From Patescibacteria group bacterium (GTDB lineage Bacteria; Patescibacteriota; Minisyncoccia; UBA6257; UBA9933), in contig JASJPP010000020.1 of assembly GCA_031432155.1 (NCBI GenBank), positions 1 to 41,798 on the forward strand: a stretch of DNA of 41,798 nt, in the 5' to 3' direction. The notes beneath the pieces were generated by a model. The model made no database searches. It saw nothing but the letters and a program-made list of their open reading frames with translations, and had not been told where the DNA came from. Both the position numbers and the translations under genes were made by a program. The first letter of the stretch is position 1. Every line of letters starts with the position of its first letter. Below are positions 40,252-41,798 of the stretch, piece by piece.

Positions 40252-41798
40252 ATGAAAAATCAAACCAAAAAGTTTTTTATTTATACTCGCAAGTCTACGG
40301 ACGACAAAGACAGACAAGTCCGCAGTATTTCTGACCAGTTAGCGGAACTGAAAGATTTGGCGTTGAAAGAACAACTAGAAATTGTTGATGTCTTTGTCGA
40401 AAAGCAGACCGCCAAAATACCGGGTCGCCCAGTATTTAACGAAATGATGGAAAGAATGGAAAAAGGTGAGGCGTCTGGTATTTTGGCGTGGCATCCCGAT
40501 AGACTTGCTCGCAACTCGGTAGATGGAGGAAAAATTATCTACCTCGTTGATACTGGTGTCATTTCAGAAATGAAATTTCCAACTTTTTGGTTTGATCCGA
40601 CACCGCAAGGAAAATTCATGCTCTCAATCGCTTTTTCGCAATCCAAGTATTATGTGGATAATTTGAGCGAAAATATAAAACGAGGTCATCGCAACAAAGT
40701 GAAAGACGGAATATGGCCTCAAATGGCTCCGCTCGGATATGTGAATAAAAATAGAAAGATTATTCCCGACGAAAATATCGCACCTTTAATCAAGAAAACA
40801 TTTGAGGCATATTCGTCTGGGTCTTTCACTTTGCGACAGCTTCGAGACAAATTTAATGCAATTGGATTGAAGCGAAAAAGCGGAAAGGAACTTGCGGTGT
40901 CGAATTATCAAAAACTTTTGAAAAACCCGATTTACACAGGATTGATGTTGTATAACGGCGAAATCCACGAAGGCAAACACGAACCGATTATCACAAAGAA
41001 ACTTTTTGATTCCGTTCAGGAAGTGATGATGAGAAAATCTAAACCTCACTCCAAAGGACTAAAGCCATTTTTGTATAGAGGATTTTTCCGTTGTGGAGAA
41101 TGTGGCTGTTTTATCACCACCGAAACACAAAAAGGTCATAACTATTTGCGATGTACCAAACGGAAAAATCCTTGCTCACAAAAATATACTCGTGAGGAAA
41201 TCATCACTTCCGAAATTCAAAAGGAAATCAAAAAAGTTTCTTTGCCAGACGATTGGGCTTCTTGGATGTTGGCGGAAAACGAAAAAGATAAATCAGTGGA
41301 AGCCCAATCGTCTACGCTTTTTGCGGATAAAACAAAAGCCGATATTTCTCTTTTGGATTCTAAAATTGAGAAGCTGATGAACGCTTATCTCGAAAATGCT
41401 CTTTCGCTAGACGAGTATCGAAATATGAAAAACAAACTTGTGAATGAAAAACAGCTTCTCAAAGAGAAATTATCGGCTTTTGAGCAAAAAGCGAATAATC
41501 GGTTCGAACTTACCGAAAAGTTTTTGAAATACAATATGGAATTGGCAAACGAGGGAACAAATGAAGAAAAACTTCATTTGTTCAAAAAAGTCGGTTCGAA
41601 CTTTCAAATTAAGGATCGAACCGTACTTTTTGAGCCACGCGGAGCGTGGAAAACCCTTTTGGATTCTGGATTTTTTGGGGGGAATACATTTGTGTCGGCA
41701 CTTCGTGCCGACCCCATTTCGGCTTCAAAATGCGATTTCGATTTCTGGCGGAGGCGGGAGGATTCGAACCTCCGAAAGGATTGCTCCTTTAACATCTT
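40252..41798 (+). CDS. Large serine recombinase (resolvase, recombinase and zinc-ribbon domains); no stop within the window
   Basis: IYTRKSTD catalytic Ser, GRP.F..M, WHPDRLARN, APLGY, L.NP.YTG, GKHEPII, CGECG..C..C, coiled coil, KVGSNF; reads into tRNA antisense (WRRREDSNLR). Confidence 0.93.
   Translation, partial: MKNQTKKFFIYTRKSTDDKDRQVRSISDQLAELKDLALKEQLEIVDVFVEKQTAKIPGRPVFNEMMERMEKGEASGILAWHPDRLARNSVDGGKIIYLVDTGVISEMKFPTFWFDPTPQGKFMLSIAFSQSKYYVDNLSENIKRGHRNKVKDGIWPQMAPLGYVNKNRKIIPDENIAPLIKKTFEAYSSGSFTLRQLRDKFNAIGLKRKSGKELAVSNYQKLLKNPIYTGLMLYNGEIHEGKHEPIITKKLFDSVQEVMMRKSKPHSKGLKPFLYRGFFRCGECGCFITTETQKGHNYLRCTKRKNPCSQKYTREEIITSEIQKEIKKVSLPDDWASWMLAENEKDKSVEAQSSTLFADKTKADISLLDSKIEKLMNAYLENALSLDEYRNMKNKLVNEKQLLKEKLSAFEQKANNRFELTEKFLKYNMELANEGTNEEKLHLFKKVGSNFQIKDRTVLFEPRGAWKTLLDSGFFGGNTFVSALRADPISASKCDFDFWRRREDSNLRKDCSFNI
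41632..41751. repeat. 120-bp inverted repeat, outer arm (within the recombinase CDS)
   Basis: Exact reverse complement of 40113-40232. Confidence 0.97.
41746..41798 (-). tRNA. tRNA-Ser 3' part, truncated by window end
   Basis: Long variable arm AAAGGA-GCAA-TCCTTT, T-arm GGAGG-TTCGAAT-CCTCC, acceptor CGCCTCC, G discriminator, CCA; anticodon outside the window. Confidence 0.88.

Follow-up and report, generated by a model that had tools for sequence, protein, structure and literature searches.

An integrative element of Patescibacteria whose large serine recombinase gene appears to exchange its 3′ end on integration

The window analysed here is a stretch of 41,798 nt, the whole of contig JASJPP010000020.1 (C20) of a 653-kb, 49-contig Patescibacteria assembly from an ultra-small groundwater bacterium. 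Its right end carries an integrative element of 4,588 bp (37156-41743), which sits in the 3′ end of a tRNA-Ser(GCT) gene and encodes a large serine recombinase (LSR) whose reading frame runs across the attachment (att) site. The parts follow each other in the order B side, core TCTGGCGG, P′ arm, cargo, inverted P′ arm, inverted core, inverted X arm, recombinase gene (int), X arm, core TCTGGCGG and tRNA (Table 1). The tRNA-Ser(GCT) gene was found by ARAGORN on contig C21 of the same assembly, at 3771-3860, and this contig shares 55 nt with the window end. A preliminary description of this DNA proposed that the C-terminus of the recombinase is switched by recombination, and it is this proposal that we follow up here.

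Table 1. Coordinates of the element, its att sites and related features in the window.
Feature	Position	Strand	Remarks
Older attL-like junction	29549..29612	+	TGGCGG and second-class tail CFLDKFQMYFGQNPQDFDE with stop; directly after the stop of a P-type ATPase gene
Crossover core TCTGGCGG, left junction (attL)	37156..37163	+	same 8 nt at 41744-41751; left border of the skipped stretch
P′ arm at attL	37164..37373	+	native tail CLLDKVRNYFEQNPND encoded by 37164-37211 (48 nt, 16 codons); stop 37212-37214; then G+C-rich palindromes
Cargo region	37374..39902	-	Pfam matches
Cargo gene, GlpM-like	37362-37718	-	Pfam
Cargo gene, glycosyltransferase family 1	37722-38876	-	Pfam
Cargo gene, T5orf172/MUG113 protein	38880-39605	-	Pfam
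Cargo gene, XRE-type helix-turn-helix (HTH)	39610-39816	-	Pfam; divergent from int
Spare P′ arm, inverted	39903..40112	-	second native tail and stop at 40112-40062
Spare core copy	40113..40120	-	end of the 120-nt inverted repeat
Spare X arm	40121..40232	-	inverted copy of 41632-41743, 100% complementary; ends 19 nt before ATG
LSR gene (int)	40252..41798	+	open at window end; core crossed in frame; stop on contig C21
X arm	41632..41743	+	last 112 nt before core, LSR codons 461-498; P half of attP
Palindrome H1	41635-41649		CCACGC-NNN-GCGTGG; stem invariant, loop variable; inverted copy in spare arm
Palindrome H2	41694-41712		pairing kept by compensatory changes; inverted copy in spare arm
Crossover core, right junction (attR)	41744..41751	+	in frame, ..F-W-R..
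3′ part of tRNA-Ser(GCT)	41746..41798	-	CCA encoded; T-loop TTCGAA at 41763-41768

The frame 40252..41796 has no stop up to the window end, and its product carries the Pfam domains Resolvase (PF00239, E 6e-19, residues 10-155), Recombinase (PF07508) and Zn_ribbon_recom (PF13408). Among 36 aligned relatives the residues Y11, R13, K14 and S15 of a nucleophilic-serine catalytic domain are invariant, as are the zinc-ribbon cysteines C281, C284, C301 and C308. In addition, an AlphaFold2 (AF2) model of the natural full-length form with a native tail (L134; 36-row alignment, mean predicted local distance difference test score, pLDDT, 70.8) predicts long helices at residues 333-380 and 386-432, corresponding to the coiled coil of serine integrases. 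The enzyme does not match that of a DNA invertase switch (Hin/Gin type or recombinase-in-inverton), where a small serine recombinase ending in an HTH works on two similar sites: the protein is an LSR of 516/533 residues, and the two sites differ beyond the core, one being followed by P′ and the other by the tRNA. No relatives of the recombinase were found in viral contigs, in a scan that picks up close relatives only and so gives no evidence against a phage origin. A promoter and terminator scan of 37000-41798 returned 13 promoter-like sites against 9.1 expected, none of them placed to explain int expression.

As the preliminary description had it, this gene contains the att core in frame: TGG CGG at 41746-41751 is read as W-R and represents the antisense of the CCA end and acceptor stem of the tRNA. 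Only the extent of the core had to be corrected, since the shared sequence is the 8 nt TCTGGCGG, found at both junctions and, on the minus strand, in the spare copy. The integrated protein indeed runs through the tRNA antisense without a stop in the window, and reading the flanking sequence, which had been suggested as a check, placed the stop on C21, 33 codons past W-R, so that the coding sequence (CDS) has 533 codons in all. Fusion with the other arm would shorten it to 516 codons, the last ones reading W-R, then CLLDKVRNYFEQNPND and a stop; this predicted ending is present in the minus-strand open reading frame (ORF) 40062..40244 and, identically, at 37158-37214. The two DNA states encode different LSR C-termini, namely a 16-residue native tail versus tRNA-antisense residues.

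The borders of the element are given by its empty site. We compared positions 29000-41798 with the Logan k=31 contigs of four public runs from four studies, and contigs of three of the four (X1, X3 and X5) contain the joint 37155>41744, in which 4,588 nt are skipped and 8 bases fit both sides. In X1 the joint has a depth of 19.2 and the cargo of 53.8 against 67.4 for the flank; the corresponding depths are 42.2, 114.1 and 147 in X3 and 398.1, 1039.8 and 1388 in X5, i.e., about 28% of the flank for the joint and about 78% for the cargo. Since the depths of cargo and joint together roughly equal that of the flank, about a quarter of the population carries the exact empty site. The element ends exactly at the core, as had been claimed, and combines the precise empty site with direct repeats of the core as borders, the hallmarks of an integrative element. 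A transposon-like unit consisting of the repeat-bracketed gene alone was rejected because its removal leaves no natural empty site, and the observed one removes all 4,588 bp. By Pfam matches, neither a recombination directionality factor (RDF) family among the cargo nor a second small serine recombinase among the element’s genes was recognised, and no replication gene was seen in the element. The HTH gene occupies the same position in 61 of 84 related loci, and the other cargo genes in none of the 84.

The spacing of the recognition motifs distinguishes the two kinds of site. Counting the T of TGG as 1, the attP carries TTCGAA at +23..28 in P′ (37180-37185) and TTCAAA at -21..-16 in X (41724-41729), symmetric about the GC of TGGCGG and 22 bp from the centre (TTC[GA]AA midpoints +25.5/-18.5). 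In the attB of the empty site the T-loop TTCGAA of the tRNA is located at +18..23 and TTCAAA at -15..-10, 16.5 bp from the centre (midpoints +20.5/-12.5). In related loci the usual start of TCGAA is +24 for P′ arms (42 of 51 unique ones) and +19 for tRNA arms (103 of 105 unique ones). The motif is displaced outwards by 5 bp in P′ compared with the tRNA arm, and this matches the shift described for the Listeria integrase in the available text of Rutherford et al. (2013, PMC3783163), where attB has the zinc-ribbon domain (ZD) motif 5 bp further in than attP does. To judge by these spacings, the sites are a bona fide attP/attB pair obeying the 5-bp motif-shift rule of LSRs; the recombinase appears to recognise its target tRNA by the T-loop, of which P′ carries a mimic.

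Between cargo and int the element carries a second, inverted copy of attP (X-core-P′), which is intact. The preliminary description had pointed to inverted repeats of 120 bp, and the arms 40113-40232 and 41632-41751 are indeed 120 nt long and 100% complementary, while the P′ arms (the 37164-37373 side and 39903-40127) form an inverted repeat of 225 nt at 96%. The P′ arms agree base for base over roughly the first 200 nt from the core, and a circle junction is indistinguishable from the spare attP. As a general feature, the spare arm was rejected as a small protein gene because it has no conserved start of its own: an in-frame ATG, GTG or TTG before the arm is missing in 9 of 17 distant loci. 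The 13/14-nt string ATTGGCAAACGAG[G] occurs in int at 41541-41554, 77 nt before X, and again at 40233-40246 abutting X of the spare arm, as if the latter had been copied from the gene 3′ end with 77 nt lost; a piece of 22-29 nt from just before X recurs beyond P′ instead in some distant elements.

Repeats of this kind invite the suspicion that a chimeric contig, mixing integrated and excised forms, has produced both the inverted repeat and the read-through into the tRNA. The window does end within the tRNA at an assembly branch point, where it overlaps C21, and many related loci are located at contig ends. Nevertheless, the spare arm has unique sequence at its inner junction, which three other genomes (G191, G014 and G146) have conserved, the P′ arms differ by a few bases and hence are separate copies, and about 100 assemblies, produced in many studies and with many assemblers, show this layout, single-contig genomes included. 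We consider an artefact extremely improbable.

The native tail seems to be constrained in two ways, and the preliminary description had asked whether its conservation is at the amino-acid or at the DNA level. We calculated pairwise Nei-Gojobori proportions of nonsynonymous (pN) and synonymous (pS) differences for 99 unique spare arms and for 40 sampled of 91 unique LSR cores. The pN/pS ratio is 0.16 in the LSR core, 0.70 in the X linker, 0.37 in tail codons 1-5 and 0.25 in tail codons 9-15 (..YFEQNPND), which are kept as protein, while codons 6-8, in which the TCGAA(C) motif is set 5 bp further out than its counterpart in the tRNA arm, have a pS of only 0.037 and are frozen as DNA (TCGAAC). 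The answer is that both levels are involved. In 40 unique tails (a set that by mistake includes one tRNA arm) codon positions 1/2/3 have entropies of 1.09/0.87/1.34, the third being more variable than the second in 14 of the 15 tail codons. The spare arm in 20 distant loci continues in frame into x-L-L-x-K-[IV]-R-T-x-F-x-x-N-P-D behind linkers that are unalignable between elements, with free third positions in the N-P-D residues (AAT/AAC, CCN and GAT/GAC) and, in tails of the N-P-D form, a stop within a few codons. In the L134 model the tail (493-512) is predicted as a helix, although with a pLDDT of about 52 it gives weak evidence. Taken by these substitution patterns, the tail is dual-coded, comprising a recombinase recognition motif and a selected protein segment.

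The same data can be read in a neutral way: attP would overlap the gene 3′ end simply because the element is compact, the last 16 residues would be dispensable and the isoforms alike, and conservation would be due to the att site and to copying between the P′ arms. The frozen codons 6-8 and the offset of the motif fit a binding site, the linker before the tail is weakly constrained and predicted to be disordered, and the length of the integrated tail is arbitrary; a trivial explanation of this type, a variable C-terminus, was offered for the dsiB recombinase gene of Dehalococcoides too, according to the available text of McMurdie et al. (2011, PMC3146451). However, codons 9-15 are beyond the usual reach of an LSR half-site and combine free third positions with kept residues, and a stop is kept near codons 15-20 in many distant elements, though several distant tails run much longer. 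We regard the neutral by-product as unlikely, though it deserves serious attention.

The X arm, in contrast to the tail, is under nucleic-acid rather than protein constraint. In palindrome H2 five pairs have changed on both sides, in 39 cells, a result reached by none of 500 shuffles, and these compensatory changes alter the encoded residues (ALRAD / RLRRD). The corresponding linker, residues 471-503, has a pLDDT below 50 in the L134 model and is predicted to be disordered. H1 and H2 could be a terminator, a binding site or a cruciform.

To understand how widely this arrangement is distributed, we searched for it in 201 genomes of the same order, 89 of which have a relative of the LSR at E<=1e-20. 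In 23 of 29 loci with 44-91% identity the ORF runs antisense into a tRNA 3′ end (Ser, Gln, Asn, Arg, Glu, Leu, Ile or Ala), the remaining ones having a non-tRNA tail (four loci) or being cut by the contig end (two). Of the 27 loci with enough upstream DNA, 22 repeat the 3′ coding end almost perfectly, in inverted orientation, upstream of the gene, and the layout, found in well over 100 independent assemblies, is more than chance. The genome studied here has a 45%-identical LSR paralog on contig C28 (1-2100), which reads into tRNA-Ala(GGC) in the same frame. On contig C19 of this genome there is an inverted tail pair (..CLLDEIRTFFEQNPDCEF with stop) at 82-124 and 5695-5737, beside tRNA-Ala(CGC).

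We then classified close loci by the sequence after each arm, 160 in all, with 72-97% identity and in equal parts from genomes and metagenomes (80 each). Upstream P′ is combined with a downstream tRNA in 72 loci, with a downstream P′ in 7, with another sequence in 10 and with a cut end in 17; an upstream tRNA is combined with a downstream P′ in 1 locus, with a downstream tRNA in 2 and with a cut end in 3; the upstream side is missing in 35 loci, whatever lies downstream, and 13 in all are unclear. Several of the "other" arms are tRNA ends that ARAGORN left uncalled, and its batch run also missed three tRNAs at the start of C28 that another tRNA search found. The targets are all tRNA-Ser isoacceptors, plus Asp and Pro. 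In several relatives (L046, L098, L129, L172, P0025, P0053 and P0063) the X-core is joined to a third kind of sequence (..WRATRVKYPR.., WRDTRVK), neither an ARAGORN-called tRNA nor a P′ arm, which may be another target. LSRs that are 72-97% identical occur in metagenome-assembled genomes labelled Nomura-, Kaiser-, Uhr-, Moran-, Levy-, Lipton-, Doudna- and Saccharibacteria.

The spare site is, to judge from these loci, live, because some of them (L066 and L119) have two tRNAs and because tandem arrays occur with a foreign P′ on the 3′ arm. In L066 and L119 a tRNA-Ser gene borders the recombinase gene on either side, and the two tRNA genes differ, an arrangement that recombination of the spare attP with another chromosomal tRNA would produce. 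L035 (contig C2 of G191) is a tandem array of two elements with recombinases 35% identical, and a foreign P′ occupies the 3′ arm in several loci.

The preliminary description suggested, furthermore, that inversion could restore the free isoform while the element is still integrated. In the extended form of this reading the gene would flip between the 120-nt repeats and regain the spare tail downstream of the tRNA promoter, and the flipped form would drive excision. Several observations agree with this. In 27 of the 59 loci with an inverted match the spare and 3′ arms are 100% identical, and in 24 of these 27 the match is 108-122 nt long and stops precisely at the core, while arms diverge by 10-25% between elements; such identity within and difference between elements indicates concerted evolution and implies exchange between the copies. 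The spare tail has a coding signature yet lacks a conserved start, and one locus, L128, with the tRNA upstream and the native tail downstream, is in the reverse state. However, gene conversion without crossover explains the identical arms equally well, and among the 73 loci with one tRNA and one native side 72 read into the tRNA, a count taken from public assemblies; k=31 contigs are too short to span the 112-nt X arm, and rare flipping may occur within a population. The arms of L128 are only 79% alike, so that no simple flip can have produced it, and LSRs are not known to recombine attP with attR, according to the available text of PMC3783163. A native tail was found on 13 of 78 database LSRs matched by a C-terminal query, 11 of which have a contig on record, of 1.2-5.3 kb, compared with up to 914 kb for tRNA-tailed forms; these short contigs could represent circles or flipped forms, or the assembler may have walked through the repeat, and we do not use them as support. 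Inversion is not supported as a common state, and its role as a switch seems to us quite improbable. At the same time, an outcome of 72:1 from two near-identical attP copies needs some asymmetry, which the neutral by-product does not readily provide.

We propose the following scenario in place of these readings. Integration cuts the LSR gene at the core: its last 16 codons, with the stop, end up at the far junction (37164-37214), while the integrated gene continues into the tRNA antisense. The full-length enzyme, with its short C-terminal helix, would be the form made from the free circle. Integration may be self-limiting, because the tail is removed and the gene is placed head-on to tRNA transcription, and the recombinase would be damped. 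This damping would stabilise the inserted state and keep the live spare attP from rearranging the chromosome, while excision would rebuild the LSR gene. A full-length gene downstream of the tRNA promoter would be short-lived and a clipped gene head-on to the tRNA stable, which could account for the 72:1 bias.

Several points weigh against this scenario. The pN/pS values are uncorrected and represent non-independent pairs taken without a tree, and they were obtained from spare copies, which are detached from the gene in the common state. The helix predicted for the tail is of low confidence and undocked. Integrated tails are 2 to >50 residues long; this indicates that any integrated tail is tolerated and fits a dispensable tail as well. 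The empty-site joint has a shorter side of 29-30 nt at a likeness threshold of 90, which is a caution zone, though expected of a k=31 junction unitig, and the joint was not seen in run X2, whose contigs drop rare variants, so that this is no evidence of absence. Finally, the empty site may represent a never-occupied lineage rather than excision.

On balance, we favour this scenario as the best explanation as a whole, with different confidence in its parts. The sequence-level account taken jointly (an LSR element with att in the gene, a core 16 codons before the natural stop, a tail swap, a dual-coded tail and a spare inverted attP) is very probably correct, and as far as comparison of loci can tell, the isoform switch truly exists in the DNA, is shared throughout the family and has selection on the tail behind it. 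The functional account, with a full-length form made by the free circle, self-limiting integration and an excision that rebuilds the gene, is tentative and somewhat less likely than not. A still bolder suggestion is that this LSR family sets its own direction without a separate factor: the tail would be needed for the integration-competent free form, the spare attP would rebuild the gene by inversion or by use of the other attP, the state would be written in DNA topology, and the spare site would drive tandem arrays and tRNA-to-tRNA rearrangements across Patescibacteria. In this full extent it is speculative and rather doubtful.

The window contains traces of further elements of this type. The related tails listed in the preliminary description at 25-63, 2903-2957 (minus strand), 3049-3095, 29549 and 37158 hold up on translation, the first three carrying the family motif ..[AI]R[TI]FFE.. 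The junction at 29549, whose tail translates as WRCFLDKFQMYFGQNPQDFDE with stop, is 78% identical to the P′ arm, and the sequence downstream of it matches the P′ arms of G191 and G014. The 7.6 kb from there to the element (29549-37155) are a defence island without a recombinase of its own, with a type III restriction-modification pair at 30639-34411 (minus strand) and an AbiL pair (AbiLi, 34976-36187; AbiLii, 36203-36739), and form the B side of the empty site. The contig starts with the 3′ end of another tRNA (1-24, plus strand), directly followed in the tRNA sense direction by the tail EFDFARTFFERN with stop (25-63); inverted copies of this tail are located at 2903-2957 and 4537-4577, a further TGGCG-plus-tail at 3046-3095, and an 80-nt inverted repeat of 99% links 91-170 with 2823-2902. 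There is no recombinase gene in 1-4600, and this region looks like a decayed array of related elements.

An LSR gene whose 3′ end overlaps att is already known from the ssrA islands of Dehalococcoides, where dsiB always overlaps attL at its 3′ end, reaches a stop only outside the island, and may need the circularised element to be fully functional (McMurdie et al. 2011, PMC3146451, available text). By this description the islands are similar to our element: in both cases the LSR belongs to an integrative island at a small-RNA gene, the integrase 3′ end covers att, and the stop is outside the island when integrated. They differ in targeting tmRNA and in encoding DsiA, a second and small recombinase; "inverted repeat" as a term is absent from the main text of that paper, which in its available parts mentions neither a spare inverted attP nor a conserved native tail. 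In the literature on LSRs, attP in integrase genes, the candidate phyla radiation (CPR)/Patescibacteria and tRNA we found nothing closer than the Dehalococcoides dsiB, and no publication describing a conserved native tail or a spare inverted attP.

Phage-type LSRs (A118/LI, Bxb1, phiC31 and SPbeta) have the same set of resolvase, recombinase and zinc ribbon with a long coiled coil. Their attP is generally outside the integrase gene, and excision requires a separate RDF, whereas this element has attP within the CDS and another, inverted attP besides, and Pfam matches reveal no RDF. Their sites are likewise short and quasi-symmetric, with the outer motif 5 bp nearer to the centre in attB than in attP (PMC3783163, available text). 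The analogies drawn in the preliminary description, to SSV-type integrases and to integration-dependent immunity, are fair as such, though both concern tyrosine systems and the enzyme here is a serine recombinase. In the SSV-type (type I) archaeal tyrosine integrases attP is inside the integrase gene, which is split on integration into a tRNA gene; the split leaves two large non-functional gene parts, while the serine recombinase described here loses only its last 16 residues. In the integration-dependent immunity of mycobacteriophages, reportedly shown experimentally by Broussard et al. in 2013, attP lies in a coding gene and the proteins of the free and integrated forms differ in C-terminus and in stability, but the affected gene is a repressor and the integrase is a tyrosine recombinase. 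The predicted free circle, composed of two unique segments (int, 1.4 kb, and cargo, 2.5 kb) between two inverted copies of about 330 bp with the recombination site, resembles the yeast 2-micron plasmid and further circles that carry two inverted recombination sites. The FLP recombinase of that plasmid is a tyrosine recombinase inverting between identical sites; to our knowledge, LSRs do not recombine attP with attP.

To insert large DNA into genomes, large serine integrases are the tools mainly used, and it is normally a separate protein that makes them act in one direction. If the scenario is true, an LSR that edits its own C-terminus on integration would represent a compact, self-contained way to a self-limiting or reversible reaction. 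The single stretch that combines a recombinase binding site (predicted, a mimic of the tRNA T-loop) with coding sequence is a clean case of overlapping constraints. The element is extremely mobile among CPR lineages, has varying cargo and adjoins defence islands, and because of this wide spread and varying cargo next to defence islands it is likely a major route of gene flow in bacteria with few known mobile elements.

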